Sequence record: NC_028957.1 | DNA from: Escherichia phage vB_EcoM_VR26 | Direction: 5' to 3' (one strand) | DNA: 64,000 bases | In this document: positions 1 through 62,288 of the stretch, in pieces | Layout of the letters: each line of letters starts with the position of its first letter | How positions within the stretch are numbered: position 1 is the stretch's first letter | The notes under the pieces: generated by a model | Databases searched by the model: none | Told to the model about the DNA's origin: nothing | Seen by the model: the letters and a program-made list of their open reading frames with translations, nothing else | Translations under genes and position numbers: made by a program

Positions 1-483
1 AAGCTTCCGTTGTTGCTTACGACTCTCTAATGTATATTCAGCGGCCAAAATAGTAAGCTTGTCTTTATCGTAATTTTTAATATCAGAGTAAGTTGGACGG
101 CGGTCAACCATTCCAAAGTGGTCACCATTTTCTAACATCAAATAACACACTAAATGATAATCATCGTCAGCATTAATAAGTTGACTATAATCGCTAGGGT
201 CGTTTAAAGCATATACTGAATAACGTAGTCCAGCGAATTCCACTCGTTGAATACCCAGATTCACGTCAATAATTTCCAAGGCATCTGCGAAAGAAATGTC
301 TTCAGCTAAAGCAAAAATAAAAGGCAATTTTGTAGTATCACCACGGCTAGTTGTTCTTCTTAAGAAATCATTGGAATAACCTAGGTCACCACGGATTCTA
401 TAAAGAACTGTATTAGTTTCAGTGGCAAGACCACTATCACCAAACCATTTTACATTTGATATAAGATTATCGTATGAAGTCAT
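1..483 (-). CDS. hypothetical protein, 3' end outside window
   Basis: Reverse frame open from ATG at 481-483 (GAGGAG SD upstream) to position 1, checked codon by codon; starts MTSYDNLISNVKWFGDS; no family recognised. Confidence 0.4.
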   Translation of the reverse strand, partial: MTSYDNLISNVKWFGDSGLATETNTVLYRIRGDLGYSNDFLRRTTSRGDTTKLPFIFALAEDISFADALEIIDVNLGIQRVEFAGLRYSVYALNDPSDYSQLINADDDYHLVCYLMLENGDHFGMVDRRPTYSDIKNYDKDKLTILAAEYTLESRKQQRKL

Positions 484-526
484 AATATTCTCCTCTCCCA
501 ATTAGGGGGCAAAGCCCCCTTTTATC

Positions 527-1120
527 TTACTTAAGTGAATTGATGTATTCTTCAATGTCAGCGGACGTGGTATCCACACCAACCTGTGGACCTTTGAAGG
601 TTTCAACACGCATCAGAGTGTCTTCAATATCAATCTTAGTCAATGCAGCGATTTCAACAACATCATCTGCAGTCGCAATACCCAGGGCAGATACCTTACG
701 AGTTTCGCGGATGTATTCCAGTTTAACAGCTAGTTCCTGACGAGAATCATCCAGCTCTTTAACTTTCAATTTAATTTCATTACGCATTTCAACATAATCA
801 TCTGCCTTCTTACGAAGTTGTTTAGCGGTGCGACGATACAGGAGACCCAGTTTAGCATGGACTTGGACATCAGCACCATCAGCAATCAGTTTACGGATTT
901 CACGCTCTTTTGAAGCAGCGAGCTGGTCTTTTTCATTCGCTAACTCGCGGATGCGTTTTTCTTCATTAACAGACTTAACGTGGGCAGTCTGGAGCTCAGT
1001 AATCTTGTCAATCAGGGTAGAAGCCGCTTTAGTATATTGGTCTTCAATAGACAGGTTTTGTGCCATTGCAGTACCCAGTTTGGAGCGGATGAATTCAACA
1101 AGTTTCTTTAAAGTATTCAT
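527..1120 (-). CDS. hypothetical protein, predicted coiled-coil rich
   Basis: 197-aa ORF with ATG start, preceded by an early-promoter stem-loop element; charged heptad-like sequence; no family recognised. Confidence 0.5.
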
Positions 1121-1156
1121 GGTATTTCCTTCAGTTGGTTAATGTTTTATTATCCA

Positions 1157-1192
1157 GGGAACATACTATCATGTTCCCGTTAAAGCGTACAC
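1157..1192 (-). promoter_or_regulatory. early-promoter stem-loop element (PeSL-like), sigma70-type
   Basis: Reverse strand reads GTGTAC, 18 nt, TAGTAT; inverted repeat GGGAACAT/ATGTTCCC encloses the -10; lies upstream of the 527..1120 gene. Confidence 0.5.
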
Positions 1193-1196
1193 TGAT

Positions 1197-1502
1197 TTAG
1201 ATTTTATTTTCCTGCACACCATAGTAAAGTTCATCAGACACGATATCCAGGATGCGGCGAACATATTCATCATGGTAACGACATTCAAAATCAAATTCAA
1301 CTGTAGTTTCTGGCTCACGGGAAAACTTAACTTGCACATTCAGGTGGTTAACAACTTTAGTAAAGCTGTCAGTAAAGAATTCTTTTGCTACTGCTTGTTG
1401 TACTTGTACTTTATACTTTGTATTGCGAATCATGTTTTCAGCTGATGCGAAATTACCAGTTTTATCAAAGTCAACAAGCGCCAGGTTGATGATGAATTTC
1501 AT
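1197..1502 (-). CDS. hypothetical protein
   Basis: 101-aa ORF, ATG start with GGAG SD, early-promoter element immediately upstream. Confidence 0.5.
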   Translation of the reverse strand: MKFIINLALVDFDKTGNFASAENMIRNTKYKVQVQQAVAKEFFTDSFTKVVNHLNVQVKFSREPETTVEFDFECRYHDEYVRRILDIVSDELYYGVQENKI

Positions 1503-1520
1503 TTTATTCTCCAGTTTTAT

Positions 1521-1575
1521 TTGGTAACTCAGTATGGAATCATTATGCCTTAAAGCAGGGGGCTTGTATACCCCC
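1521..1575 (-). promoter_or_regulatory. early-promoter stem-loop element (PeSL-like) with conserved leader
   Basis: Reverse strand reads GTATAC, 17-18 nt, CATAAT, then leader GATTCCATACTGAGTTACCAAA; GGGGG/CCCCC stem-loop over the -35 region. Confidence 0.5.
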
Positions 1576-1582
1576 TTTTGAA

Positions 1583-2026
1583 TTAAATTTCAAATTCTTT
1601 GCGGAAGTTGGAAGCATAAGATTGAACAGATGCTTTGTTGAATCCAAACTCACGCACAATCATATCAATAACAGCTCTGCGAGCAGCACCATTAGACATA
1701 TTAACAGTTTTGAACATATCATAGCATAAATCTTTGTTGCTCATACCGGAGCGTTTAGGTGCCTTACGCTCAGCTTTTGGTTCAGCTTTAGGAGTAGGTT
1801 TAACTTCTGGTTTAACCTGCCCATCATTCAGACCTTTAAAAATTTTACCTGCCAGAGTTGCCAGTTTAGCAGCTTCACCACGAGTGATACCAAATACTGC
1901 CGGGTTAAATGAAATACCTTCAGCTGTCAGACGTTTGAAGAACATACGCGCTGCGGATTGCGCTTCAGCTTCAGAAGAGTTGTTTAATGCCAGTTTAACG
2001 TACTTAACCAGTTTTGAAGTTTTCAT
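1583..2026 (-). CDS. hypothetical protein, paralog of the 2110..2535 product (shared C-terminal domain)
   Basis: ORF track starts at a GTG (2077) inside the promoter; in-frame ATG at 2026 follows the promoter and a weak SD; C-terminus ARRAVIDMIV...VQSYASNFRK matches the neighbouring gene. Confidence 0.5.
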   Translation of the reverse strand: MKTSKLVKYVKLALNNSSEAEAQSAARMFFKRLTAEGISFNPAVFGITRGEAAKLATLAGKIFKGLNDGQVKPEVKPTPKAEPKAERKAPKRSGMSNKDLCYDMFKTVNMSNGAARRAVIDMIVREFGFNKASVQSYASNFRKEFEI

Positions 2027-2047
2027 TTTATTATCCCGTTTGTTTAT

Positions 2048-2097
2048 TTGGTAACTCAGTATGGGATAATTATACACTATCCCACCTGGAAGTAAAA
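2048..2097 (-). promoter_or_regulatory. early-promoter stem-loop element (PeSL-like)
   Basis: Reverse strand reads TTTTAC, 17 nt, TATAAT; inverted repeat GGGATA/TATCCC encloses the -10; same leader CCATACTGAGTTACCAAA as the other copies. Confidence 0.5.
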
Positions 2098-2109
2098 CAC
2101 TTTTCTCAA

Positions 2110-2535
2110 TTATTTTTGAGCTTTGCGGAAGTTGGAAGCATAAGACTGAACAACAGTCTTTTTGATATCATGGGTAGTAACCAGGACATCAATCAGAGCG
2201 CGGCGAGCGGCATTATCATTCATATCAATTTCTGCAAATGCCTGGAAGCAAATGTCACGGGCGTTACCAGATTTGGACTGGATTTTTTCTTCTTTAACTT
2301 CTTCAATTGGGAATTCAATCATTTCAGCTTGGATTAATTCAATGATGGATTCTTTTGACTGTTTGGTGTTTACCTTCAGTTCAGAATTAAGGGACTTGGC
2401 GATGGCAACAATCTGGGTTGAAGTCAGATGGATAAGTGCATCTTCACGAATGCAGATTTCACATACTTCGTCAGCAACCATTTTGTTAGTGATGCGGGTA
2501 ACAGAGAATGCAGAGGTCAGGGTCAGAAAGTTCAT
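2110..2535 (-). CDS. hypothetical protein, paralog of the 1583..2026 product
   Basis: 141-aa ORF, ATG with GGAG SD; C-terminus ARRALIDVLV...VQSYASNFRK shared with the adjacent gene. Confidence 0.5.
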   Translation of the reverse strand: MNFLTLTSAFSVTRITNKMVADEVCEICIREDALIHLTSTQIVAIAKSLNSELKVNTKQSKESIIELIQAEMIEFPIEEVKEEKIQSKSGNARDICFQAFAEIDMNDNAARRALIDVLVTTHDIKKTVVQSYASNFRKAQK

Positions 2536-2567
2536 TTTATTTCTCCAAAGTTTTTGTGATTCAGTGT

Positions 2568-2615
2568 GTAACTCAGTATGGAATCATTATGCACCCGGTC
2601 AATTCGGATGTACAC
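2568..2615 (-). promoter_or_regulatory. early-promoter element with conserved leader
   Basis: Reverse strand reads GTGTAC, 18 nt, CATAAT, then GATTCCATACTGAGTTAC; near-identical to the copies at 1521 and 41079. Confidence 0.5.
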
Positions 2616-2652
2616 TACTTTTTGAAGAAAATTTCAAATTTATTCGGGGTAT

Positions 2653-2680
2653 AAAAAAGCCCCAACCTTTCGGGAGGGGC
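2653..2680 (-). terminator. rho-independent terminator after the T5orf172-domain gene
   Basis: Reverse strand reads AGCCCCTCCCGAAAGGTTGGGGCT followed by TTTTTT. Confidence 0.6.
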
Positions 2681-3339
2681 TATACCTTGTCGGGGTTCCA
2701 CCTGCAAGGCAAGTGTTCAAAATAGGGTGCGCCGTGAATACGACCACGTTGAACAAAGCCGTCATCTACTTTCATAGCAAGCAGGATGAAGTCCATAAGA
2801 CCCTGATTGATTGGTATTTCAAATTTCGTAGATTTAATATCTAATTTTTTAACTATGGAACTTATGTCATGAAAGAAAAACCATTCACCATTTATATGGT
2901 CCTGATTATAAATGCTGTGCATATATTTTTCAAGTTCTACTGCATCCTGGGAATATCTAAATGATACTATTTTAAAACTTTTAAAAGGTGAAAATGTATT
3001 TGCTGTTATAGCTCTAACATCGGGTTCTATACTTCTTCCTATTTTATAATAATTAGGATTTGTAGTGTCTACCATTATGTATACAAAAGCTTGTCGATAA
3101 CTTTTTTCTATGTCAAATTCATCTTTAAATTTCAAAAGATTTAGGGCAGCAGTCCTACAAAATACTCTCCATATCGACGAGCGTTTAGCTTCGGTCATCG
3201 AAAAGAATTTTTTCTTATCTATGATTTTAAGAAAAGCCACCTTTTCAATTAGTTCTTGTGTTATTTCAAAATTACCATGGTATATTAATCCAGCTTTTAT
3301 AGCCAAATTAATTTGGTCCCAGTCTACATCACTTCTCAT
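2680..3339 (-). CDS. T5orf172-type GIY-YIG domain protein
   Basis: 219 aa; C-terminal half carries FVYIMVD...YYKIGRS ... ELEKYMHS...HINGEWFFF, which matches the T5orf172/GIY-YIG pattern as I recall it; N-terminal ~90 aa unassigned. Confidence 0.55.
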   Translation of the reverse strand: MRSDVDWDQINLAIKAGLIYHGNFEITQELIEKVAFLKIIDKKKFFSMTEAKRSSIWRVFCRTAALNLLKFKDEFDIEKSYRQAFVYIMVDTTNPNYYKIGRSIEPDVRAITANTFSPFKSFKIVSFRYSQDAVELEKYMHSIYNQDHINGEWFFFHDISSIVKKLDIKSTKFEIPINQGLMDFILLAMKVDDGFVQRGRIHGAPYFEHLPCRWNPDKV

Positions 3340-3358
3340 AATATTATTCTCATTAATT

Positions 3359-3435
3359 TGGTCGGGGTGAAAGGATTCTAACCTTTAACCTGCGGTTTAG
3401 AGGACCGCTACTCTATACAATTGAGTTACACCCCG
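3359..3435 (-). tRNA. tRNA-Arg (anticodon UCU)
   Basis: Reverse complement folds as a cloverleaf: acceptor CGGGGTG/CACCCCG, anticodon stem GCGGT/ACCGC with loop CCTCTAA, T-stem AAAGG/CCTTT, encoded CCA. Confidence 0.8.
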
Positions 3436-3439
3436 TGTT

Positions 3440-3514
3440 TGGTGGCCCTTGCTGGTTTCGATCCAGCTACCTATCAGTTATGAGCTGACAGCTCTCCCAT
3501 TGAGCTAAAGGGCC
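3440..3514 (-). tRNA. tRNA with anticodon CAU (Met, or Ile2-type AUA reader by analogy with T4 tRNA-Ile)
   Basis: Reverse complement GGCCCTTTAGCTCAATGGGAGAGCTGTCAGCTCATAACTGATAGG...AAGGGCCACCA; 7-bp acceptor, anticodon loop CTCATAA, encoded CCA. Confidence 0.8.
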
Positions 3515-3521
3515 TTAATTA

Positions 3522-3941
3522 TTAACTTGACCATCCCCAACCTTCGGAAGGACCATCGTAGTGTACACAAATATCAGGTGAAATATTAAAATTGGCTTCG
3601 TCCGAAGAAAAAACACCCAACTTTTTACCAAACTCACTGAAGCAGAATTGTTCGCCGCCTGGAGCCCAAACATCTTCAAATAAAACAGTGAATAGCCAGC
3701 CAGCAATTAAATCTGCATCAAATTCTGTTACACCTGAACACATTTCATATAACTCGTCATCACAGACTGTAGCCACGATATGGGCCAAATGACTTTCAGA
3801 TTTTAACCAGATGCGAATTAAATTACCATCAAAACAATTGTAGTTAATTTCGGATGGCTGGCAGTTATAAAATACTTCTGTAGCGATTTCTGGATTTTCC
3901 CAGGTTTCGTCGTTAAAATTGATAAGAATAGGAGTAATCAT
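3522..3941 (-). CDS. hypothetical protein
   Basis: 139-aa ORF, ATG with GAGGA SD; no family recognised. Confidence 0.5.
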   Translation of the reverse strand: MITPILINFNDETWENPEIATEVFYNCQPSEINYNCFDGNLIRIWLKSESHLAHIVATVCDDELYEMCSGVTEFDADLIAGWLFTVLFEDVWAPGGEQFCFSEFGKKLGVFSSDEANFNISPDICVHYDGPSEGWGWSS

Positions 3942-4053
3942 ATTTTCCTCATTAGTTGATTATTCTATTATGAAAGGCTCTTTGAGGGAAGAACCTTTGG
4001 TAATAGAGGGTACTTATTAATAATAACACACAACTCTTAAAGCATATTACTTG

Positions 4054-4434
4054 TTAACCTTCATCAACAATAGTATGGGTGTTGGCATTAACAATCTGCC
4101 ACCAGTCAAAACGGTTAGAACCATATTGAGGCTTATTCTCGTTTTCTTTAATGATATCGCGCAGTTCGTCTTCAGTCGCAGCTTTTGCGATTAGGTCTGC
4201 ATAACCACCCCGGGGATAATAGCTATCGCCAGCAAAGAGTAAAAAGTTTGTTTTGATATTCTTGAATTCTTCAAGAGTAATAACCGTTCCAGATGGTTGA
4301 ACAATATCTACGTAACTATACCCCAATTGCTGGGCTTTATCTACCGCTTCAAGCAGGGTGTCATGCGCCCACCCAATTTGACACTCTGGTTTGTCAGATG
4401 GATTGGCCTGATAATCCGCATACACTTTATACAT
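4054..4434 (-). CDS. hypothetical protein
   Basis: Start moved to the in-frame ATG at 4434 (MYKVYADYQ), which follows an AGGTGA SD; the track start at 4482 is not an ATG. Confidence 0.45.
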   Translation of the reverse strand: MYKVYADYQANPSDKPECQIGWAHDTLLEAVDKAQQLGYSYVDIVQPSGTVITLEEFKNIKTNFLLFAGDSYYPRGGYADLIAKAATEDELRDIIKENENKPQYGSNRFDWWQIVNANTHTIVDEG

Positions 4435-4435
4435 T

Positions 4436-4621
4436 TTACTCACCTTTAGATATTTTATCCATAACGAAAGAGATTGAACCAATTAAGAATGCAACTACTA
4501 AAGAGATTGTATTCTCAGAAGTTGAAAGCATATTCAACATAAAGCCAGCAAACATGCTAAAACCAAAAGCAGTAACAGCAACAAGGGCAGTAACATTTCT
4601 AATTAATTCGCAACGTTTCAT
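4436..4621 (-). CDS. small hydrophobic protein, probably membrane
   Basis: 61 aa with two hydrophobic stretches; ATG with GGAG SD; early-promoter element directly upstream. Confidence 0.4.
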   Translation of the reverse strand: MKRCELIRNVTALVAVTAFGFSMFAGFMLNMLSTSENTISLVVAFLIGSISFVMDKISKGE

Positions 4622-4629
4622 TTTATTCT

Positions 4630-4678
4630 CCTCAGTAGTTGATGGGATAATTGTACACTATCCCATTCAAAAGTACAC
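4630..4678 (-). promoter_or_regulatory. early-promoter stem-loop element (PeSL-like)
   Basis: Reverse strand reads GTGTAC, 17 nt, TACAAT; inverted repeat GGGATA/TATCCC around the -10. Confidence 0.5.
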
Positions 4679-4912
4679 TTATTTTTTACGGAAAATTGAT
4701 TTATACTTGTTAGCCCATTTCTCGATAACTTCTGCCGGACCCTGGATAACAAAATAGTCACCAAACTCTTCACCGCCGAGCTGACCGTAATTATCTAAGG
4801 CGTCGCGGAGAGTTCCATAAGGCATTTCGCCCATTTTATCTTTCTTGCCAGTGTAAATGAATTGCACTTTAACATCAGCAGTTTCATTAATAAATTCTTG
4901 ATAAGTTTTCAT
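4679..4912 (-). CDS. internal head protein-like, with capsid-targeting sequence
   Basis: N-terminus MKTYQEFINE closely matches the T4 IP capsid-targeting sequence MKTYQEFIAE (gp21 L/I-x-E site); 77 aa. Confidence 0.6.
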   Translation of the reverse strand: MKTYQEFINETADVKVQFIYTGKKDKMGEMPYGTLRDALDNYGQLGGEEFGDYFVIQGPAEVIEKWANKYKSIFRKK

Positions 4913-4924
4913 GCTGTCTCCAGT

Positions 4925-4967
4925 AGTTGATGGGATAATTATACTGCAGTTATTCCATCATGTATAC
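4925..4967 (-). promoter_or_regulatory. early-promoter stem-loop element (PeSL-like)
   Basis: Reverse strand reads GTATAC, 18 nt, TATAAT; imperfect inverted repeat around the -10. Confidence 0.5.
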
Positions 4968-5210
4968 TTATTTTAAGTCTTCTAGGCGTTTTTTCATCTT
5001 GGTGCCATTCTTAGCAATTTCGCCTGCATCAGAACAAAGAGCAAGGAGAGCTTTAACTTTACCCTGGTCGCCTTTAAAAGATGATGCATCTACAGAATCA
5101 GCAAGTTCTTTGATGCGAGCAAACAGGCGCTCTGCTTCAGCAAGGGCTTGACCAAGTTTAACTTCCATACCATGGGAAGATTCTGTCATAAATGTTTGAT
5201 AAGTTTTCAT
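4968..5210 (-). CDS. internal head protein-like, with capsid-targeting sequence
   Basis: N-terminus MKTYQTFMTE; 80 aa; tandem with the other IP-like genes. Confidence 0.6.
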   Translation of the reverse strand: MKTYQTFMTESSHGMEVKLGQALAEAERLFARIKELADSVDASSFKGDQGKVKALLALCSDAGEIAKNGTKMKKRLEDLK

Positions 5211-5218
5211 TTGAAATC

Positions 5219-5491
5219 CTATTTTAGATAAATTGCATATTTTTTATACCCAGCTGTCTCATGGCGGAGACCCTTGTCATTGGCAAAACGCTCAATGTTA
5301 TTAATTTGGTTCTGGTCAAGTTCAGAGATGTCAAACGCGAAAAAGTTGCGTTTGTTACCAATTGTTATATGGTCAGTTAAGTCAATGCTGTACAGGTGAT
5401 TGATATTGTCAATCATAGCTTTGACTGCTTTACTAATTTTTACTTCTTCATTCAGTTGGGACTCGTTGAAAAGTTCATTAAAAGTTTTCAT
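5219..5491 (-). CDS. internal head protein-like, with capsid-targeting sequence
   Basis: N-terminus MKTFNELFNE; 90 aa. Confidence 0.55.
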   Translation of the reverse strand: MKTFNELFNESQLNEEVKISKAVKAMIDNINHLYSIDLTDHITIGNKRNFFAFDISELDQNQINNIERFANDKGLRHETAGYKKYAIYLK

Positions 5492-5499
5492 AAGAAACC

Positions 5500-5832
5500 T
5501 TATTTATACAGTTTAGCTAGTTCTTTACGTCCGCGAGCAGACATAATGAATTGTTCATCACCAATTTTGAAATAAGCCATACCGCCGTCAACAGCGATGC
5601 CAATTTCTTTAGTACCTTCTTTGCCTTTCCACTTGCCACCAGATTTCAGGACAGCTTCAACTGCAGCTTTGGAATATTTGGACGTTTGAAAACGTTCATT
5701 ACCAATCTGAAAGAAAACACCATCTGCGTTTTTGGATAAACCAAATTTCAGAGAGCCTTCACTATCATCAATTGATTTGGTCTCATTGATGGCGGATTCG
5801 GCTAAAAACTCATTATAAGTCTTGATGTTCAT
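5500..5832 (-). CDS. internal head protein-like, with capsid-targeting sequence
   Basis: Start placed at the ATG at 5832 (MNIKTYNEFLAE) after a GGAG SD; the upstream ATG at 5865 sits inside the promoter -10. Confidence 0.55.
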   Translation of the reverse strand: MNIKTYNEFLAESAINETKSIDDSEGSLKFGLSKNADGVFFQIGNERFQTSKYSKAAVEAVLKSGGKWKGKEGTKEIGIAVDGGMAYFKIGDEQFIMSARGRKELAKLYK

Positions 5833-5853
5833 TTTAACTCCGTTTGTTCGTTG

Positions 5854-5892
5854 GTGTAGGAACATAATACTGCACCTACACTCGTTTGTACA

Positions 5893-5893
<1 letters not shown>
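5854..5893 (-). promoter_or_regulatory. early-promoter stem-loop element for the IP-like gene array
   Basis: Reverse strand reads GTGTAC, 17 nt, TATTAT; inverted repeat GTGTAGG/CCTACAC around the -10. Confidence 0.5.
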
Positions 5894-6583
<690 letters not shown>

Positions 6584-6584
<1 letters not shown>

Positions 6585-7261
6585 TATATTACCTTATTAA
6601 TTTTATCAAAAAGTTCTTCGAGTGTGCCATCGTTTTTAATAACAATGTCACTAGCTAGTGGTGGAAGTCCAGCTTCCGTAATGTGTGTATCAGTAGAATG
6701 ATTTGCTTCATCGCGTTCTACAAAGATTATTGTAGCACCCATCGCCCGAAGCGAATCAAGTTCGTTCTTTTGGCGAACATCAGGGACAACGTAATATTTA
6801 TATCCAGAATAGAGGTTGTCAAGATAATCGCACGCAAAAGTTTTAATCCAAAACATGCTGTCGAACTCTGTACAAACGATGTCAGTTCCAAGGGTCTGCA
6901 TGAAACGTCTAACTGTCCAGGGCTCAACATTATTTAGTGTGTGAAATTCAATGATTTTACGAACCATATCTGGATTCGGAAGGTCAAGATTATATTGTTG
7001 TTTCAACCATTCAAGAGCATCAACCAGAAGAATATGAGCTTCAGTGTTGTTCATTATCAAGGTTTTTTCGCGGTCATAACCTTGTCCATCAAAATTTTCC
7101 AGGGTCAAATTGTGTGGCAGGTCTTGACGAACCCACGCTTTATAAAGCGCTTCTTTAATTGGACCAGCAAGTTGCCACTTTGTTCCGTTTTGACTAATAA
7201 CATAATCAGCAGTCGTATCTTTACCACTGCGTTTTTTACCCACAATCGCAATTAATTTCAT
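6584..7261 (-). CDS. 1: gp1 deoxynucleoside monophosphate kinase
   Basis: MKLIAIVGKKRSGKDTTADY P-loop and strong similarity to T4 gp1 as recalled. Confidence 0.9.
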
Positions 7262-7857
7262 ACGTTTCTCATAGATGGATGCATTGACTTAGACCTGATT
7301 TCCTGTTGCATTGCTGCATTACTATCAATCTGTGGTCTACCTTCTATTATTATACCATCAATTTCTACAGCAAAAGACTTAAAGTTAAAAGTTGCTGTTG
7401 CGTTGATGGCAGGGTCAGAATCTTCTTTATATGAATACTGAATCTCTGACAGGTCGGACGGCCATGCTCCATAGTAATGGATTGACATGACAATTTTGTC
7501 CTTGTTGTTATCTAAGATATGAAGCGTGACCGCTTCGGGACGACCCTTTGGATGCCATGCTTTTGATTCGTGTGTGATGTAGTTATTAAGCGAGAGCATC
7601 CATTTATAGATGTCAAGCCATGCCCTTAGGTCTTTGTCACACAGAAAGTTAACAATCAGCGGGTCGAATTCTATTGTACTACCAGGAAGACTGGAGCGAT
7701 TTATACCTTGCGTTCCACCGGGGACATCCGTCACAGGAATGTGAACCCCTGGGAGGGTAACGTCTTGAACGTTGAGTTTAAAAGTCTGTGTGAGGTTTGA
7801 ATCGCTTACCTCTAATATAAAGTTAGTCGTGTTAGTTTGATTATATAAACCTGACAT
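7258..7857 (-). CDS. 3: gp3 tail tube terminator / sheath stabiliser
   Basis: Start set at the internal ATG (MSGLYNQ) after an AAGGTG SD; the longer track ORF would overlap gp2; assignment by synteny and size. Confidence 0.65.
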   Translation of the reverse strand: MSGLYNQTNTTNFILEVSDSNLTQTFKLNVQDVTLPGVHIPVTDVPGGTQGINRSSLPGSTIEFDPLIVNFLCDKDLRAWLDIYKWMLSLNNYITHESKAWHPKGRPEAVTLHILDNNKDKIVMSIHYYGAWPSDLSEIQYSYKEDSDPAINATATFNFKSFAVEIDGIIIEGRPQIDSNAAMQQEIRSKSMHPSMRNV

Positions 7858-7868
7858 AGTGCACCTTG

Positions 7869-7907
7869 TTTGCTTTAAACCAATCAGTGTTATAATGGTT
7901 CTAGACC
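7869..7907 (+). promoter_or_regulatory. MotA-box middle-promoter-like module, antisense to gene 2
   Basis: Forward strand reads TTTGCTTTA, 13 nt, TATAAT, then the palindrome-containing GGTTCTAGACC; same module as upstream of rnlB and uvsY. Confidence 0.45.
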
Positions 7908-7942
7908 TTTTGTCCTTACCAATAACACTGACCGATAATAGA

Positions 7943-8776
7943 TTATGAATTTCTCCATACTTTCTGGGAAGAGAATCTTTTGCCTTTCGACATAAATTGT
8001 TGCAATGGAAGCATAACAACGTTTGCCCAGTCGCTGGGCTTGATTTCAGTGATAGTACCTTTTATATTACCAGGTATATATGCTTTAATCATCTGGTCAG
8101 CCCCTTTAAATCCCTTCACCTTTGACCAATCAATCTTCAGATGAGTCTTGTTCGTAATCGTAGGAGTATTAGCATATTGCTTAAGCAGTTCCTCAAGGAA
8201 CTCTTGACGTGCCTTCGGTGGAATATAGTGCAAGTTCAAACCATACATCAAATTGTGCTTACCCAACCCAAGATAAATGATTAACGGGTATTTGTCCCAG
8301 TACGGAAGAGTATCCTTATGCTTTGCATCATAGATATAAGCATAAATCTTACCTGGTTGAGGTTTAGCCGTTACGTGCCCTCTGACAGCTTTCTTAATTG
8401 TCTCTGCGAACCATCTGGCAGATTTGGTGTTGCTTGCAGCGCCTTCGTTAGCAATCTTATCTCTTATGCTCTTTCTAAAGCTATTCACCATTATTAGCTG
8501 GCGTTCAGCCTTCGTAAGTTTACCAGCAGGTTTCTTTTTGAGTTTGGATACTTTATAAGCAGTCTGAATTCTCGAATGATATCTTGACATGCTTTTGGTA
8601 AAGGTTGAATAGTTGATTCCTTTCTCTTCAGCAAACTTTTTCGAGGTCATTCCCTTTTCTTTTGCTGTATAAAATTCAACCCCTATCTCAACCCATTGTT
8701 GTTCGGATTTACTGGGTTTCGGACCCGGTTTATCTGCAGATTCATTGATAAATGTAAAAATACTCATCCTTTCCAT
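7943..8776 (-). CDS. 2: gp2 DNA end protector
   Basis: 277 aa; synteny and similarity to T4 gp2. Confidence 0.85.
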
Positions 8777-9213
8777 CCTAATTTTTTCAGTGAGTTTTCA
8801 GTGATTATCCTAAACGTTATACCCATTTTATCTGCCGTAGATTGTGCAGCTTTCCATTTGTCCGAGTTAACAGCCCAGGTATACATCTCGTTAATAAATC
8901 TCTTTTTGCTCGCAGCGGTATTATTAACAGGTTTGGTTGGTGGTCTTGTTTCTTTTAATGGCTTAACTTCGAAAAAGAACTGTTGTCCTGTATCAAACTT
9001 AACCCAGAAATCCATATAATACCTGCGCTTTTTACCATCGGCATTGCTAAAGTAAGGGATGATAACAGTCTCAGAACCCCATTGAACAACGTTCGGATGG
9101 TTGTCGAGCCATCTCATAAGCCAGGCCTCCCAGCTTGACCGGTATTGTATTTTCTTCCAGTCGCCCTTATATTTTTCTATATTAGTGGGCTTAAATTTCC
9201 CGGAGTATGCCAT
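8764..9213 (-). CDS. 4: gp4 head completion protein
   Basis: 149 aa; GGAGG SD; synteny with T4 gene 4. Confidence 0.85.
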
Positions 9214-40729: not shown

Positions 40730-40750
40730 TCTTAGATTAAGTTAAATAAA

Positions 40751-40780
40751 AAGGGACCCTTGAGGTCCCTTTCTTGTTTT
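40751..40780 (+). terminator. rho-independent terminator after gene 23
   Basis: GGGACC CTTGA GGTCCC followed by a T-rich run. Confidence 0.7.
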
Positions 40781-41073
40781 CATACCATACCATTTAAATG
40801 AACTTCTACCCGGCGCTTGATGAGGTCTCTGAAATTAACACTGTTCTCTTGAAGTTTCAACCAGTTACCCGATTTGTCTCTGGTGTGAGTAGAATAATTA
40901 CCATTCCACCAAAAATCAGTGTCATATGCTAAGTTTTCATATTTTTTAACTAGTTTGTTCAGAGCATTACCATTAACACCATTTGGGTATTTGTTGACCA
41001 ATGCAACAACTTCAATTTCCAGATTTTTAAAGGTATTCCGAAGGAAAGATACTTTGTTCATTTTAGACTCCAT
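40780..41073 (-). CDS. hypothetical protein, early gene inserted between 23 and 24
   Basis: 97-aa reverse-strand ORF with its own early-promoter element; the in-frame ATG at 41061 has the better SD (GGAG). Confidence 0.5.
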   Translation of the reverse strand: MESKMNKVSFLRNTFKNLEIEVVALVNKYPNGVNGNALNKLVKKYENLAYDTDFWWNGNYSTHTRDKSGNWLKLQENSVNFRDLIKRRVEVHLNGMV

Positions 41074-41078
41074 TGTTT

Positions 41079-41127
41079 GGTAACTCAGTATGAAATCATT
41101 ATGTCTTATCTTAATCGGGTTGTAAAC
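41079..41127 (-). promoter_or_regulatory. early-promoter element with conserved leader
   Basis: Reverse strand reads GTTTAC, 18 nt, CATAAT, then GATTTCATACTGAGTTACCAAA. Confidence 0.55.
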
Positions 41128-41133
41128 AACTTT

Positions 41134-41141
41134 TATAAATA
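41134..41141 (+). promoter_or_regulatory. late promoter TATAAATA for gene 24
   Basis: Exact TATAAATA about 27 nt upstream of the gene 24 ATG. Confidence 0.65.
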
Positions 41142-41167
41142 AAGTATATCACAAAAGGAAAGCGCAA

Positions 41168-42448
41168 ATGGCAAAGATTAACAAATTACTGCGCGAGTCA
41201 ACTACCACTACCAGCAACTCCTTGGGCCGCCCGAATCTTGTTGCTTTGACCCGTGCTACAACCAAATTGATTTACCGCGATATTATCGCTGAACAACGTA
41301 CTAACCAGCCAGTTGCTGCGCTGTACGGTGTTAAATATCTTACTCCTGATAATGAATTCAGTTTCCAGACTGGTGCTACTTATGGTGGTGAAGTTGGTTC
41401 TAAAGACCGTGAAACAATTCCGGAATTTACAACCCCAACTCAGGCCGTAGCTAAAGGTGGATACATTAAATTCCAGAATATCGTTTATAAAGCTCTGGTT
41501 GATAATCCATTTGCATCGACCACAGAAACAGTGTTATCTGATGTTCTGCAAGAAGGTCTTGTTGCATTAACTATTCGTTTAGTTCCTGATGCTGCACACA
41601 CCGAAAAATTTGAAGCTGGTGATGTTGAAATTAGTAACGCCGTGTTCCAGGTTAATAAATGGAATGCTCCTGTTAAATCCCGTAAATTGAAAACTGCATT
41701 AACTGTTGAGCTTGCTCAGGATATGGAAGCAAATGGCTTTAATGCTCCTGCATTCCTGGAAGACCTGCTTGCTACTATTATGGCAGATGAAATTAACAAA
41801 GATGTTCTTCAGTCTCTTATTACCGTTTCCAAGCGTTATAAAGTAACTGGCGTTTCTGACAATGGCACCATCGATTTAACATATGATGCAGCTCCAGAAG
41901 GTGCACGTAAACTGTACGAACTGGTTTGTGAAATGAACTCTGAAATTCAGAAAACTACATCTTACTCTGGTACATTCGTTGTTGCCTCAAGTCGTGTGGC
42001 TGCGATGCTCGCCGGTTCCGGTTGGTTGAAACATAAACCTGAAGATGAACAATGGCTCCCGGAAACCGCGTATGGTTATTTGATTAATGGTCTTCCTGTA
42101 TTCTGTGATGTTAACAGCCCATTGGATTATGTGACTGTTGGTGTTAAAGAGAATTATGGTGGTAACGAGGTCGTGGGCTCAATTTTCTATGCTCCTTATA
42201 CAGAAGGCCTGGACTTAGATGATGAAGAGCATGTAGGCGCGTTTAAGGTCATTGTGGACCCAGACAGCTTGCAGCCATCTATCTCCCTGATGGTTCGATA
42301 TGCACTTTCAGCTAACCCTTACACCGTTGCTAAAGACGACAAAGAAGCTCGTATTATCGATGCAACTAATATGGATTTAATGGCTGGCCAGAGCAACATG
42401 TCTTATCTGCTCGGTGTTAAACTTCCACCAATCATTTATGAGGCGTAA
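41168..42448 (+). CDS. 24: gp24 capsid vertex protein
   Basis: 426 aa; N-terminus MAKINKLLRESTTTTSNSLGRPNLVALTRATTKLIY close to T4 gp24. Confidence 0.9.
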   Translation: MAKINKLLRESTTTTSNSLGRPNLVALTRATTKLIYRDIIAEQRTNQPVAALYGVKYLTPDNEFSFQTGATYGGEVGSKDRETIPEFTTPTQAVAKGGYIKFQNIVYKALVDNPFASTTETVLSDVLQEGLVALTIRLVPDAAHTEKFEAGDVEISNAVFQVNKWNAPVKSRKLKTALTVELAQDMEANGFNAPAFLEDLLATIMADEINKDVLQSLITVSKRYKVTGVSDNGTIDLTYDAAPEGARKLYELVCEMNSEIQKTTSYSGTFVVASSRVAAMLAGSGWLKHKPEDEQWLPETAYGYLINGLPVFCDVNSPLDYVTVGVKENYGGNEVVGSIFYAPYTEGLDLDDEEHVGAFKVIVDPDSLQPSISLMVRYALSANPYTVAKDDKEARIIDATNMDLMAGQSNMSYLLGVKLPPIIYEA

Positions 42449-43732
42449 ATGCAAAAGATTAACGCACTAATTCACGAATCAACATTAACGGCGGCCAACC
42501 AGGTCGCCCGTCCTAATTTGCTTTCTTATACTCGAGCTACGAATAAACGAATTTTTAAAGCTCTCGTGGCCGAACAGAAAACTACTCAGCCAGTTGCAGC
42601 GCTGTATGGCGTTCGTGTTCTGAACCCAGATGATAAAATGACTTATCTTGGTGGAGCAACGTTTGCCGGTCAAATTGGTATGTTCGAGCGTAAGAATATT
42701 CCAGAATTTACGAACAAAGACGAAGCTTATGCAGTCGGCGATATGTTCCAGTTTGAAAGCATTGTATTCAAAGCTTTGGAAGCTTCTCCTTTTGCCGGGA
42801 CCCTCGAAACTGATTTGGGTGAAGTTATTTCTGAAGCCATTGCGGCTGGCCATATAAGAATGATGTCAGATGCGGCTTTCACTGATAAATTTGAACAAGG
42901 ACATCCTGAAATTGCTGAAGCCGGTTTCCGTATCGATAAATGGCAGACTGAAGTTAAATCCAGAAAACTGAAAACCTCTTTAACCGTTGAGCTTGCGCAA
43001 GACCTGGAAGCAAATGGTTTCGACGCAACAGATTTTATTGATAATATCCTTGGCATTCAAATGGCAGAGGAAATTAATAAGGACGTACTGCAATCTTTAA
43101 TTACCGTAAGTTCACGTTTTAAAGTCCAGGGTGTTTCCGAAAAAGGTGTACTTAATCTTACTGATGCCGCTTATGATAATGCTCAGGACCGTGCTCGAAC
43201 TCTGTATTATTATATGTGCGAAATGAATTCCGCAGTTCAACGTCAGACTTCGTTCGCTGGTACATATGCAGTCGCTTCTTCCCGTTGTGCAGCTATTTTA
43301 GCCGCTTCTGGCTGGGTTGAGAAAAAGGAAGACCAAGATGAATTGGCCTATGGTGTTCTGAAGAACGGTTTGCCACTTTATGCAGATATGAATAGCCCGT
43401 GCGATTATGTTATTGTTGGTGTAAATGCTGATATGGGTGAAGGCCAGACGGTCGCATCTTTGTATTATGCGCCTTATACGGAAGGTCTTAGTGAAGTTGA
43501 TGATGAGGGTGACACCTCGGTTGGGGAATTCAAGGTTATTGTTGACCCTGAAAGTTTACAGCCTACAGTTGCATTGTTAGCTCGTTATGCACTGACTGCG
43601 AACCCTTATACCGTTGCTAAAGACGATAAAGAAGCTCGCATTATTGATGGGGCTGATATGGATAAGATGGCTAACCAAAGTCAATTGAGTTCTTATCTTG
43701 GTGTTAAACTTCCACCACTGGAAAAAGAATAA
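42449..43732 (+). CDS. gp24 paralog, second vertex-protein homolog
   Basis: 427 aa; clearly homologous to the upstream gp24 (shared RPNL...TRAT, KSRKLKT.LTVELAQD.EANGF, ANPYTVAKDDKEARIID) but diverged. Confidence 0.85.
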   Translation: MQKINALIHESTLTAANQVARPNLLSYTRATNKRIFKALVAEQKTTQPVAALYGVRVLNPDDKMTYLGGATFAGQIGMFERKNIPEFTNKDEAYAVGDMFQFESIVFKALEASPFAGTLETDLGEVISEAIAAGHIRMMSDAAFTDKFEQGHPEIAEAGFRIDKWQTEVKSRKLKTSLTVELAQDLEANGFDATDFIDNILGIQMAEEINKDVLQSLITVSSRFKVQGVSEKGVLNLTDAAYDNAQDRARTLYYYMCEMNSAVQRQTSFAGTYAVASSRCAAILAASGWVEKKEDQDELAYGVLKNGLPLYADMNSPCDYVIVGVNADMGEGQTVASLYYAPYTEGLSEVDDEGDTSVGEFKVIVDPESLQPTVALLARYALTANPYTVAKDDKEARIIDGADMDKMANQSQLSSYLGVKLPPLEKE

Positions 43733-59860: not shown

Positions 59861-59886
59861 AAGGGACCCGAAGGTCCCTTTTTTAT
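59861..59886 (+). terminator. rho-independent terminator after gene 54
   Basis: GGGACC CGAA GGTCCC followed by TTTTTT. Confidence 0.75.
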
Positions 59887-60206
59887 TTGCGGAATGAAAT
59901 GAAACCTGCTACAGTCATTACAGCTTCTTTCTTAACAAAGACTGTAATCGCAATTGGCGCTTCAGATTCAAGCTGTCCAGTTACTATACCATTAAAAATA
60001 TTTTCTGTTTGTTCAGAATTTACAAAGTTTTCAACAGGGCGAAGGTCAAACTTCTTATCTTCACCAAACACGCGGCGCAATTCATTACCCACCGCGCTGT
60101 CAAACTCTTCTGAAGCTGGGATAACATTCTCAACTACCAGTTCCTGACCATTAAAGCGAAAAGATGATTTCATTTTGTTTTCCTCATGTGCAATTGATAT
60201 GAACAT
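59883..60206 (-). CDS. hypothetical protein (alt-adjacent small gene)
   Basis: 107-aa ORF; the in-frame ATG at 60173 has a GAGG SD and may be the true start. Confidence 0.5.
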   Translation of the reverse strand: MFISIAHEENKMKSSFRFNGQELVVENVIPASEEFDSAVGNELRRVFGEDKKFDLRPVENFVNSEQTENIFNGIVTGQLESEAPIAITVFVKKEAVMTVAGFISFRK

Positions 60207-60236
60207 TGTATCGCACTTCCTTGTGCTTGTAAACCC

Positions 60237-62288
60237 CTATGAAAGGAATTTAGGAGGAATACTTTCCAAATTAATACAACTAGCAAGAATACCAAGACCT
60301 TGGTTGACTTTCTTCGTCACCCTGGAGGATGCAAACGATGCGAAGTCAACAGATTCTTCTGGTTCCTCGCCTTTATAAACGACAAGCTCGCCAGTTTCCA
60401 TCAACACATCACCATCATAGATAACTGCATTTTCATCCAGTTGGTCAGTGGTCTGAATGTCAGCTTCCAGCATTTTGACGTTCGCATTTCCTTGATACGA
60501 CGCATCTGTAATCTTTGTAATCTTAACTATAGTTCCACGAGGAAGAATAACTTCCTGCTCGGATGGGTTGCCTGACAATTCACCAGGAACAATTACGTTA
60601 ATTAAGTCCGCTCCAGAAATTTTCCAACCGACATGCATCATTACGTGGTCGCGGCGGGCATCCGGCATATCTGGTAAAACAATTTCGTCATCAGCCTGGA
60701 AAGATGTCCCATCACGATAGTCCTGATGAACTGCGGCCATAGCAACGTTCGCCACCCAGCCACCAAAGATAATCGGTTTAAACGACGTTGATACATAGTT
60801 CCTGAAATAAAATAATTTAGATTTCTTAATTTTATCAAATGTAGGAACGTTTAAATATTGACCACGCCAAAGAGTTGTATTAGGCGGCAACTTATGTCCA
60901 ATTTCAAAGGCCGAATCCAATTCCTTAATTGTTTCGACAACTCTGTCTAGATTTAGGAATTCAGCTTCTTCTTCATAATATTTGCCCATCAAATAATTAT
61001 TAATATCGGCATAGTTTGCTCCACAATAATCTGCAATTGCTTCTCGCTGGCCATAATGGAAACGGTTGTCAGTATACCCTGCTGTGAAATTAAGAGTATT
61101 TTCTGATGCTTCTTCGGCAAAGTCTTTAACTGCAACACGAATGGCGCTTGTGTATTCTTTTTCCCAGAGCGTGGCTGCATAAGTGGCTGCATCCAGGTTA
61201 GGAGGAGCATCATTCATTTTTCTTTCGATAAATGCGGCTTTGCGAAGGTTAAGAATCTCTGCACATGATTCGGCAAAAATCTGCATCTGCTTCATACTAC
61301 CAACTGGAGCACGTTTAAGTTCACGGTGCATACGGTTAAAAATTGGGTCAGTATCTTCAACACGAATTTCTTCTTTCCAAACACCATTTGCTCGCATAGC
61401 CGTATCTGCTGCGCGCATACGTGCCATAGTATTCGTTTCAGAAGGCCGAACAAAAATTTCCAGTTCTTCGGCATCATCAATTAATTCAGCAGTTGCAGGT
61501 CGACTAAACTTAGCAGCTTCTGCATCAATTTCGTCCCAACCTTCTGGCACGGAATCACTTGGTGCGTACTGGGCTTGTGCAATAGCTCGGCGACTGATTT
61601 TAGTTTTCTGGGCAACAGCAGCGTCGGTCTTTTTGTTTGCTGCGTCAATCAGAACTTCGGCTGCGATTTCTTGTTTGGAGACTTGAGCACCTGTATCTTT
61701 ATTGGTGAATACATCGCCAACTTTAGTTTCAACTTTTTGATATTTCTCAGGGACTGGTGGCATACCATCAACCGAAAGCAGGTCAACACCCTTTTTGTAC
61801 ATAATTACATAAGCGTTCTTTTTACCGAGGCCAGAAGCATTCGGAAGAACATGATAACGCCCGCTGGTTTTCATTTGAATCAGTCGATTCATAATACGAA
61901 TAACAGCTTGGTCTTGTCCTTTCATCTTTTTGGATGGGAAACGGAACAAGACTACATCAGGTTTACCTAGTTTAATGCTTTCCCAGACTGTAACAAAAAT
62001 CAGGTTAATCGCGTCAAGAGGTTTTTCACCTAGACCACCCTTCAGAGGAACAGCATGGCCATGTGAAGTCCCGGATAACAGAAATACCTCGGCAATCGCA
62101 TCACCGCGTTTATATTGTTTAACCGTTTCTTTGCCCGTGAATTGCATCAAACGAGCCATAAGAGAATTTGTCCCAGGAACACCGAATTGCCAAACCTGTG
62201 GGACCTTGTATTTTGGGTTCATATTAATGACAGGATAACCGAAGGCTTCGATATATTTGTCAAAGAGTTCATTTAATTGTTCAGACAT
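60237..62288 (-). CDS. alt: Alt ADP-ribosyltransferase
   Basis: 683 aa; blocks shared with T4 Alt as recalled (KVGDV..NKDTGAQV, KISRRAIAQ, FYFRN.VSTS, ETGELV). Confidence 0.9.
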   Translation of the reverse strand: MSEQLNELFDKYIEAFGYPVINMNPKYKVPQVWQFGVPGTNSLMARLMQFTGKETVKQYKRGDAIAEVFLLSGTSHGHAVPLKGGLGEKPLDAINLIFVTVWESIKLGKPDVVLFRFPSKKMKGQDQAVIRIMNRLIQMKTSGRYHVLPNASGLGKKNAYVIMYKKGVDLLSVDGMPPVPEKYQKVETKVGDVFTNKDTGAQVSKQEIAAEVLIDAANKKTDAAVAQKTKISRRAIAQAQYAPSDSVPEGWDEIDAEAAKFSRPATAELIDDAEELEIFVRPSETNTMARMRAADTAMRANGVWKEEIRVEDTDPIFNRMHRELKRAPVGSMKQMQIFAESCAEILNLRKAAFIERKMNDAPPNLDAATYAATLWEKEYTSAIRVAVKDFAEEASENTLNFTAGYTDNRFHYGQREAIADYCGANYADINNYLMGKYYEEEAEFLNLDRVVETIKELDSAFEIGHKLPPNTTLWRGQYLNVPTFDKIKKSKLFYFRNYVSTSFKPIIFGGWVANVAMAAVHQDYRDGTSFQADDEIVLPDMPDARRDHVMMHVGWKISGADLINVIVPGELSGNPSEQEVILPRGTIVKITKITDASYQGNANVKMLEADIQTTDQLDENAVIYDGDVLMETGELVVYKGEEPEESVDFASFASSRVTKKVNQGLGILASCINLESIPPKFLS

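Follow-up and report, generated by a model that had tools for sequence, protein, structure and literature searches.

The region between 1157 and 5893 of a 64,000-nucleotide stretch of the Escherichia phage vB_EcoM_VR26 genome (NC_028957.1; the whole stretch is called the window below) contains seven promoter-like elements, E1-E7, which are probably composite early-promoter/stem-loop units of the PeSL (promoter early stem-loop) type. Each of them heads a single-gene or short cassette in the segment that runs from 57B through the internal protein (IP) genes, the trna.4/.3 homologs and the tRNA genes to the e.6 homolog. As such they add to an established class of elements, the earliest sighting of which was at this locus. 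Chimeric junctions show for several events that cassettes were gained, lost or swapped by recombination within element sequence or within the 5′ codons of IP genes, and the elements may in addition raise the frequency of recombination rather than just mark viable junctions.

The elements were found on the minus strand (1163-5893) by strand reading and a regular-expression (regex) scan, and they share one form, in which GTGTAC, GTATAC or (G)TTTTAC is followed after 17-18 nt by TATTAT, TATAAT, TACAAT, CATAAT or TAGTAT. E1 (5830-5900; -35 GTGTAC 5888-5893, -10 TATTAT 5864-5869, Shine-Dalgarno (SD) sequence GGAG, ATG 5832) precedes the first IP-like open reading frame (ORF) and has a position weight matrix (PWM) score of 29.1; the TAG stop codon of 57B touches its -35 box. 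E2 (4910-4982; -35 GTATAC 4962-4967, -10 TATAAT 4938-4943) stands before an ip6-like gene with its ATG at 4912, and E3 (4619-4693; -35 GTGTAC 4673-4678, -10 TACAAT 4650-4655) before the trna.4 homolog (ATG 4621). The three elements that follow head genes starting at 2535, 2026 and 1502, namely E4 (2533-2685; -35 GTGTAC 2610-2615, -10 CATAAT 2586-2591), E5 (2023-2112; -35 (G)TTTTAC 2092-2098, -10 TATAAT 2069-2074) and E6 (1500-1586; -35 GTATAC 1566-1571, -10 CATAAT 1542-1547). E7 (1118-1207; -35 GTGTAC 1187-1192, -10 TAGTAT 1163-1168) precedes the e.6 homolog (ATG 1120). The 25 nt upstream of the elements contain 64-84% A+T compared with 59% in the window, and an A-run lies directly before the -35 box in most copies. 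The distance from -10 to ATG is 25-50 nt, the SD sequences are of the GGAG/GAGG type, and in E1-E3 the stop codon of the upstream gene abuts the -35 box.

The strict regex gave six matches in the window, each on the minus strand and inside 1157-5893, while 0.01 were expected from dinucleotide shuffles of the region (maximum 1 in 500) and 0.70 from whole-window shuffles when both strands were considered. A PWM built solely from the promoters of two relatives, VR20 and VR25, was applied at a threshold of 16, which corresponds to two hits per shuffled 170-kb genome. It returned nine sites in the 64-kb window, comprising E1-E7 (scores 19.9-41.2, consensus match) and two others at 41098-41127 and 60205-60234, so that seven of the nine lie within 4.7 kb of the IP/tRNA region. 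The first-pass annotation of this DNA had noted at least seven reverse-strand copies of a sigma70-like promoter with a GTGTAC or GTATAC -35 box; the number was confirmed, and the -35 sequence applies to six copies, E5 having GTTTTAC. The early -35 box of T4 is GTTTAC at -36 to -31, and T4 relatives favour C at -3 to -1 (PMC1524935), both of which fit the GTnTAC boxes and the CCCAT found after the -10 box here. No relevant description of VR7 promoters was found in the literature searched. A generic sigma70 scan (36 hits against 22.7, a mild enrichment, with several elements ranked low) was set aside because it scores TTGACA and not the T4-type -35 box. In VR20 about 40 promoter sites were found, all but one on the early strand, and the 30 regex hits near ORFs are without exception on the early-gene strand. 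Since GTGTAC is the commonest early -35 box throughout that genome (17/30), the idea that GTGTAC/GTATAC is a locus-specific variant produced by local homogenisation was rejected.

A hairpin over the -10 or -35 box, significant or at least visible, is present in six of the seven elements. The stem GTGTAGG (5875-5881)/CCTACAC (5854-5860) surrounds the -10 box of E1 (-13.9 kcal/mol, z-score -2.6), and the -10 box of E3 is clamped by ATGGGATA (4659-4666) and TATCCCAT (4642-4649; -14.2 kcal/mol, z -3.2). E5 has the clamp GGGATA/TATCCC (2061-2084) over its -10 box (-16.6 kcal/mol, z -3.8, 0/200 shuffles), E7 has a perfect 8-9-bp repeat, GGGAACAT (1171-1178)/ATGTTCCC (1157-1164), at the same position (-12.4 kcal/mol, z -1.7), and in E6 the hairpin AGGGGG/CCCCCT (1557-1576), with a G5/C5 stem, encloses the -35 box (-15.1 kcal/mol, z -1.8). 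The inverted repeat of E2, GATGGAATAA (4950-4959)/TTATCCCATC (4929-4938), is imperfect (z -1.4); relatives have a perfect stem, GATGGGATAA/TTATCCCATC, from which, as found in VR7, the window copy differs by a G-to-A change. Taken singly, E2, E6 and E7 have modest z-scores. The earlier claim that the -10 or -35 box of the copies is embedded in an inverted repeat thus held for E1, E3, E5, E6 and E7, weakly for E2, and not for E4, where an intrinsic terminator hairpin (2660-2675) followed by a T-run and then the A/T tract is located 45 nt upstream instead (z -3.1).

An unbiased hairpin test was carried out on every ORF-proximal promoter of VR20 (30) and VR25 (34). A contiguous stem of at least 6 bp clamps the -10 box in 10/30 and 13/34 promoters, respectively, where shuffling predicts 1.6 and 1.9 (no more than 6 in any of 500 shuffles), and a strong hairpin lies within 50 nt upstream in approximately 23% of these promoters compared with about 5% in shuffles. 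The arms vary (GGGATA/TATCCC, GGGAAC/GTTCCC, GGGGTC/GACCCC, GGGACC/GGTCCC, GTAGG/CCTAC) while their complementarity and position are kept, which argues for a structure rather than a sequence recognised by a protein.

By their leaders the elements fall into groups. The leader CCATACTGAGTTACCAAA is exact in E5 (2047-2064) and E6 (1520-1537) and has three mismatches in E4 (CCATACTGAGTTACACAC, 2564-2581), while E2 (4921-4937) and E3 (4633-4649) have a different common leader, TATCCCATCAACTACTG. The single leader proposed earlier for all copies is consequently a property of three of the seven, and of the proposed scheme of two sequence subfamilies, A (E4, E6) and B (E2, E3) were recovered, to which a hybrid, E5, and two singletons, E1 and E7, have to be added. 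In E5 a subfamily-B promoter with an E3-type clamp is joined to an E6-type leader of subfamily A. The ORFs at 2110-2535 and 1583-2026 have paralogous 3′ ends (45 nt at 84% identity, 2121-2165/1597-1641, encoding ...SVQSYASNFRK), so the repeat unit there runs from the gene end through the promoter to the leader, over about 130 nt at approximately 75% identity.

The family is also dispersed. Seven exact copies of the 24-mer CATAATGATTCCATACTGAGTTAC are present in each of two 170-kb relative genomes, in five separate regions, and the view of the common leader as a local feature was rejected on account of these scattered exact copies. Most CATAATGATTCCATACTGAGTTAC copies stand directly behind GGACCCTTCGGGGTCC-T6-ATTTT-AAAAAGTAGTGTAC, and the predicted GGACCCTTCGGGGTCC-T6 terminator and the CATAATGATTCCATACTGAGTTAC copy make up a full putative terminator-promoter composite. 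In the window, an outlying member, E8 (40730-41150, minus strand), comprises an A/T tract, GTTTAC (41122-41127), an 18-nt spacer, CATAAT (41098-41103) and the leader TCATACTGAGTTACCAAA (41076-41093), which is a fourth copy of the CCATACTGAGTTACCAAA-type leader, outside 1157-5893; by its -10 box and leader E8 belongs to the same subfamily as E4 and E6. Downstream of it follow a GGAG SD sequence, an ORF of about 93 aa ending at 40780 (no Pfam hit) and the terminator AGGGACCTCAAGGGTCCCT with a T-run. This unit lies antisense between two long plus-strand ORFs annotated as gp23 (major capsid) and gp24 in VR20, and its gene is conserved in VR20 and VR25 (gp246 and gp254, respectively), VR20 gp246 being situated between gp23 and gp24. 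Judged by its predicted parts, E8 is a complete moron, that is, a promoter-ORF-terminator unit.

To follow cassette turnover, the homologous locus of 16 relatives was aligned to the first 9 kb of the window, and the ends of collinear blocks of at least 85% identity were collected. The 166 block ends form 22 clusters, and homology breaks at six of the seven elements: at 1156-1195 (E7), 1501 (E6), 2024-2026 and 2073 (E5), 2638-2662 (E4), 4646-4692 (E3) and 4964-4974 (E2), with further breakpoints near E4 (2717-2718), E3 (4600) and E2 (4866-4883). The remaining clusters are at the initial codons of IP genes (4866-4883, 5181-5210), at tRNA edges, in the 3941-4054 spacer and at two homing-endonuclease points (7946 and ~8775). 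The first ~30-45 nt of the IP genes (4870-4912, 5168-5210 and 5463-5491) are in fact a second repeat family that also coincides with homology breakpoints, those at 5181-5210 and 4866-4883 being at or near a promoter-less junction in the IP array. Cassettes between the elements differ among the relatives, as seen from their gene-order strings: a 98-aa gene (x25) is present between GTTTTAC and GTGTAC elements in nine of them, ORF 1197-1502 is missing from two, another gene (x38) is inserted at E7 in two, and three IP-type cassettes, x22, x29 and x33, are combined in various ways.

Several junctions could be resolved at base level. Compared with a relative that carries x25 (L004), E5 has the sequence of the upstream x25-flanking element through ...TATCCCATACTGAGTTA and, starting with CCATACTGAGTTACC, that of the downstream one, without differences in either part, which places the crossover in CCATACTGAGTTA. 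E5 is thus the recombinant expected from an exchange within the leader shared by the two x25-flanking elements. In a second relative (L011), which lacks ORF 1197-1502, the E6 promoter is joined at that place to the leader of E7, and in a third (L009) the boundary of a swap that replaced the -35 box and the upstream gene coincides with the 5′ edge of the stem in E7. Both x33 (47 nt) and x29 (82-95 nt) stand between direct repeats made up of element sequence, the x33 junction being at E3. Six of the seven elements thus stand at boundaries of variable gene content, with chimeric elements at the indel junctions, which answers one half of the test set by the first-pass annotation in its favour.

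These findings are compatible with the following sequence of events. Right after infection, the host sigma70 RNA polymerase would start at each element, as suggested by consensus, strand and position, making use of an A-tract UP-like region, the GTnTAC -35 box, the 17-18-nt spacer and the TAnnAT -10 box, with the transcription start at about the A of the conserved CCAT. Every small gene would in this way be served by a strong early transcript of its own, carrying a short leader and an SD sequence of the GGAG type. The predicted start lies downstream of the hairpins, so these would be absent from the element's own transcript; in RNA that reads through from the preceding gene they could bring about attenuation or termination, or protect the 3′ end of the upstream mRNA, insulating the cassettes from each other. 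Blocks of 24-95 nt (the -10 box with its clamp, the leader, the SD sequence and the first ~10 IP codons) recur in direct orientation hundreds of bases apart and elsewhere, and crossing over in these blocks by the phage recombination system would lead to deletion, insertion or swapping of expression-ready cassettes. The promoter activity and the hairpin function assumed here are predictions.

With respect to sequence length, breakpoint clusters are concentrated in the elements, since 6/22 fall in element spans that make up 6.6% of the sequence (p = 0.002). A number of results, however, weigh against the elements as drivers of exchange. At the locus, element-bearing junctions are broken in 6/7 cases and other junctions in 7/11 (p = 0.32). 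The complete genomes of VR20 and VR25, which differ by 27 indel/replacement events, were compared for regex, PWM and hairpin-bearing promoters at all or only early-strand junctions, and the junction-level odds ratio was 1.1-1.9 (one-sided p 0.13-0.50) for every promoter/junction set. A promoter is present within 100 nt of an endpoint in 9/27 (regex) or 8/27 (PWM) events, where about 10-13% of junction midpoints are that close to a promoter, and 18-19 of the 27 indels have no such promoter. The overlap of the flanking blocks between the two genomes amounts to 95 nt at the IP cassette, merely 1-16 nt at eight other events and none at the rest, so most gene gain and loss in the group may not need long repeated elements. 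The most variable junctions include promoter-less ones, namely the IP|IP junction at 5210-5219, the tRNA flanks and the 3941-4054 spacer, and E1 showed neither a homology breakpoint nor variation among the 16 relatives. As for the hairpins, folding detected none within the promoter of E4 (z -0.35) or E8 (z +1.3), the E2 stem is weak, and most -10 clamps have no subsequent U-run, so they are not canonical intrinsic terminators; the only canonical-looking ones are the upstream hairpin of E4 and those upstream of the dispersed VR20/VR25 copies. Moreover, the promoter and terminator activities are consensus-based predictions for this phage. Enrichment at variable boundaries, which the first-pass annotation had made the test of its proposal, was found in neither comparison. 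Exchanges do occur within the elements, and the data fail to show that an element makes a junction more breakable than other gene boundaries; this outcome is inconclusive rather than negative, as the junction tests are based on one genome pair and one locus and have low power.

A rival explanation holds that the elements are early promoters and terminators of the ordinary sort which take no active part in exchange, that indels arise by short-homology or illegitimate recombination or by homing endonucleases, and that only those at gene boundaries survive. Promoters would then meet breakpoints simply by occupying gene boundaries in a dispensable region, and their likeness would come from promoter constraint and the tandem duplication of paralogous cassettes. 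We regard this explanation as clearly the less probable one, yet as a serious competitor. Besides the missing junction-level enrichment, the short block overlaps and the promoter-less junctions that are equally or more variable, it is favoured by the location of 18/22 clusters at gene or tRNA boundaries regardless of promoter content (the other four being intragenic), by the breakpoints at 7946 and ~8775, which are homing-endonuclease insertions, by the paralogy of ORFs 2110-2535 and 1583-2026 and by the 5′ codons common to the IP genes. It does not account well for the E5 crossover, which is inside a 13-22-nt shared leader and not at a random intergenic point, nor for the x29, x33 and x25 indels, which have 47-95-nt direct repeats of element sequence on both sides, as homologous exchange predicts. 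The exact recurrence of the 24-mer at seven dispersed sites likewise exceeds generic promoter constraint, and mini-circles from such exchanges were detected in RB49/phi1 (Arbiol et al., PMC2839356).

Two further explanations concern the inverted repeats themselves. The GGGnnn...nnnCCC clamp on the -10 box could be an ancient homologous component of the early promoters of Krischvirus (RB49/phi1) and Gaprivervirus-type phages, possibly acting at the DNA level and not as an RNA terminator. A supercoil-dependent cruciform or single-strand hairpin might be cut or stalled upon (endonuclease VII, replication forks), seeding recombination at cassette borders, or the clamp might turn the promoter off during remodelling of the template. 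We consider this improbable; if true, it would contradict the published view of the T-even IP-locus elements as mere PeSL analogs. Finally, the repeats might be operators through which a dimeric phage or host DNA-binding protein switches the early promoters, and not RNA or DNA hairpins at all. Their position exactly over the -10 or -35 box, where a repressor would act, and the need of early promoters for shut-off within minutes would suit such a role. However, the arms are wholly different (GGGATA, GGGAAC, GGGGTC, GGGACC, GTGTAGG, AGGGGG) with complementarity and position kept, and the established shut-off in T4 (Alt/ModA ADP-ribosylation, AsiA) needs no operator, homologs of alt, modA and asiA being annotated in VR20, which makes an operator function very unlikely. 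The reading of E1-E7 as PeSL-type units remains the one we prefer.

Megablast against phage records found the best matches to 1157-5893 in VR7-, SP18- and TH40-like Escherichia/Shigella phages of the genus Gaprivervirus (94-97% identity), and by these matches the window is that of a Gaprivervirus-like T4-type phage. None of the 604 matching phage records covered 80% of the stretch, which indicates that the region is mosaic. According to annotated relatives, the element stretch is located between 57B (5893-6348) and the e.6 homolog (527-1120) and corresponds to the IP/tRNA hyperplastic region of T-even-type genomes. Every gene between these two is on the minus strand; they are, in order, four IP-type genes, the trna.4 and trna.3 homologs, a 139-aa ORF, tRNA-Met and tRNA-Arg, a T5orf172/MUG113 ORF and three ORFans. 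The IP-type genes (5500-5832, 5219-5491, 4968-5210 and 4679-4912) were named on the basis of the ip6 and ip9 annotation in VR7, and their products start with MKT(Y/F)..(E)F or MNIKTYNEF, of the capsid-targeting-sequence type. The ORFan cassettes headed by E4, E5 and E6 occupy 2110-2535, 1583-2026 and 1197-1502 (minus strand). A Pfam search of the ten cassette ORFs gave a match only for 2680-3339, the three ORFans having none, and an Rfam scan of 1-9000 (E ≤ 0.1) identified only the two tRNAs, the leaders and hairpins falling in no known RNA family.

The ORF with a Pfam match (219 aa, 2680-3339, minus strand; MUG113/T5orf172 domains, E = 4e-8 and 1e-5) adjoins the two tRNA genes in the part of the locus where the GC content is lowest (0.305 at 2801-3200). 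Together with the 139-aa ORF (3522-3941, minus strand) it flanks the tRNAs, and both are shared with only one of the 16 relatives, VR7. Its position parallels that of the homing endonuclease gene segB in the T4 tRNA cluster, and it may be a mobile or homing-type insertion. In several relatives, a MobB-like homing endonuclease gene is present between genes 3 and 2, or another endonuclease gene near the gene 2/gene 4 junction (L001, L002, L010, L013; L011, L014). The window has neither of them (7857-7946, ~8775), and those breakpoints are unrelated to the promoter elements.

The 113-nt spacer at 3942-4053 (minus strand) contains a MotA-box match, ATATGCTTTA (TGCTTTA 4038-4044), followed after 12 nt by TATTAT (4020-4025). 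This agrees with the consensus of MotA-dependent middle promoters, (a/t)(a/t)(a/t)TGCTT(t/c)A, 11-13 nt, TAnnnT (PMC1524935); a motA homolog is annotated in VR20, and the putative middle promoter is not among the seven early elements. Beyond the MotA match lies a very stable hairpin at 3964-4007 (folding of the spacer gives -23.9 kcal/mol, z -5.2). An 86-nt core (3962-4047) is kept at ~89% in 15/16 relatives while the genes on either side change, and with 38 breakpoints the spacer exceeds every other site in the locus. A similar arrangement, the 'PmSL', has been described in phage nt-1. Elsewhere in the window, the early-promoter match at 60205-60234 (minus strand; GTTTAC-18-TACAAT, PWM score 16.6), with a small GCAC/GTGC inverted repeat in its spacer, lies between an alt homolog (60237-62288) and a downstream alt.-3 homolog (59883-60206), both named by position from the VR20 annotation. 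Near E8, the tandem long ORFs at 41168-42448 and 42449-43732 (plus strand) correspond to two gene-24 (capsid vertex) paralogs in the VR20/VR25 annotation.

The elements extend the PeSL class to another lineage of the T4-like coliphages, a group widely isolated for phage therapy, and provide base-level examples of recombinants in the chimeric element at 2023-2112 and the promoter/leader fusion of L011, as well as a cassette gene and a promoter clamp common to the distant RB49/phi1 group. To our knowledge, the junction comparison is also the first simple statistical control of the idea that PeSLs drive shuffling, and it suggests that the driver model needs a properly powered, event-counted test before it counts as established.

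In the definition of PeSLs (Arbiol et al. 2010, PMC2839356), an A/T-rich tract is combined with a sigma70-like early promoter, a stem-loop that can take any of five positions, and an SD sequence with a start codon. The stem-loop may be between the boxes, over -35, over -10, upstream or downstream, mostly between the boxes or over -10 (PMC2839356). The resemblance to PeSLs noted in the first-pass annotation was upheld on every testable architectural point, including alignment with the PeSLs of phi1: the A/T tract, an early promoter with ~17 nt between the boxes, the stem-loop position, SD/ATG, an intergenic site and dispersed copies were all found. In RB49 and phi1, PeSLs are concentrated in hyperplastic regions before ORFans, chimeric single PeSLs occur where a cassette is missing, and experiments have demonstrated their promoter strength and terminator activity as well as mini-circles (PMC2839356). 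The elements described here share with them the order of tract, promoter, stem-loop, SD and ATG, the hyperplastic location before ORFans and the chimeric elements at missing cassettes. They differ in that the RB49/phi1 copies have a perfect sigma70 TTGACA and long polyG/polyC stems, whereas those of the window have T4-type GTGTAC, GTATAC or GTTTAC boxes and GGGnnn/nnnCCC or mixed stems, and in that the activities and mini-circles shown there are predictions for the present elements.

The class was extended to T4 and PST, whose PeSLs have TTTACW-N17-TAYWAT promoters and more variable stems and were tied to IP-locus shuffling (Comeau et al. 2014, PMC4122927). Along with those of nt-1/KVP40 and the T-even IP-locus elements, they share with the window elements the IP locus beside 57B and the tRNAs, the T4-type -35 box, weaker and variable stem-loops, and an IP gene number and identity that vary among close relatives. 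The VR7/SP18/VR20-like lineage is outside the analysis of those papers; its commonest -35 box is GTGTAC, its elements form sequence subfamilies, and a 24-mer recurs exactly at scattered sites. Morons (Hendrix et al. 2000, treated in a passage of PMC2839356) are matched by E8, a promoter-ORF-terminator unit reversed between structural genes; unlike E8, whose promoter and leader belong to a repeated family, morons are not defined in that passage by conserved flanking repeats.

PeSL-like sequences at T-even IP loci were seen by Repoila et al. (1994) and, in the account of them given in PMC2839356, called analogs and not homologs. One cassette bears on this point for the present lineage. The homologs found for ORF 1197-1502 are confined to this group and the RB49/phi1/JSE group, with 41% identity (E = 3e-14) to phi1 ORF198. 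Upstream of phi1 ORF198 are TTGACA-17-CATAAT, the clamp GGGGATAT/ATATCCCC and the leader ATCAAAACGAGATAC, and this element aligns with E3 and E5 (GGGATA..TATCCC, ATCAACTAC) and with E6, the invariant columns being the A-tract, T..AC, G.A.AAT and CCAT. A homologous cassette gene thus stands behind a PeSL-type element in both lineages, which is suggestive, though only that, of the phi1 and window sets of elements being related and not merely analogous.

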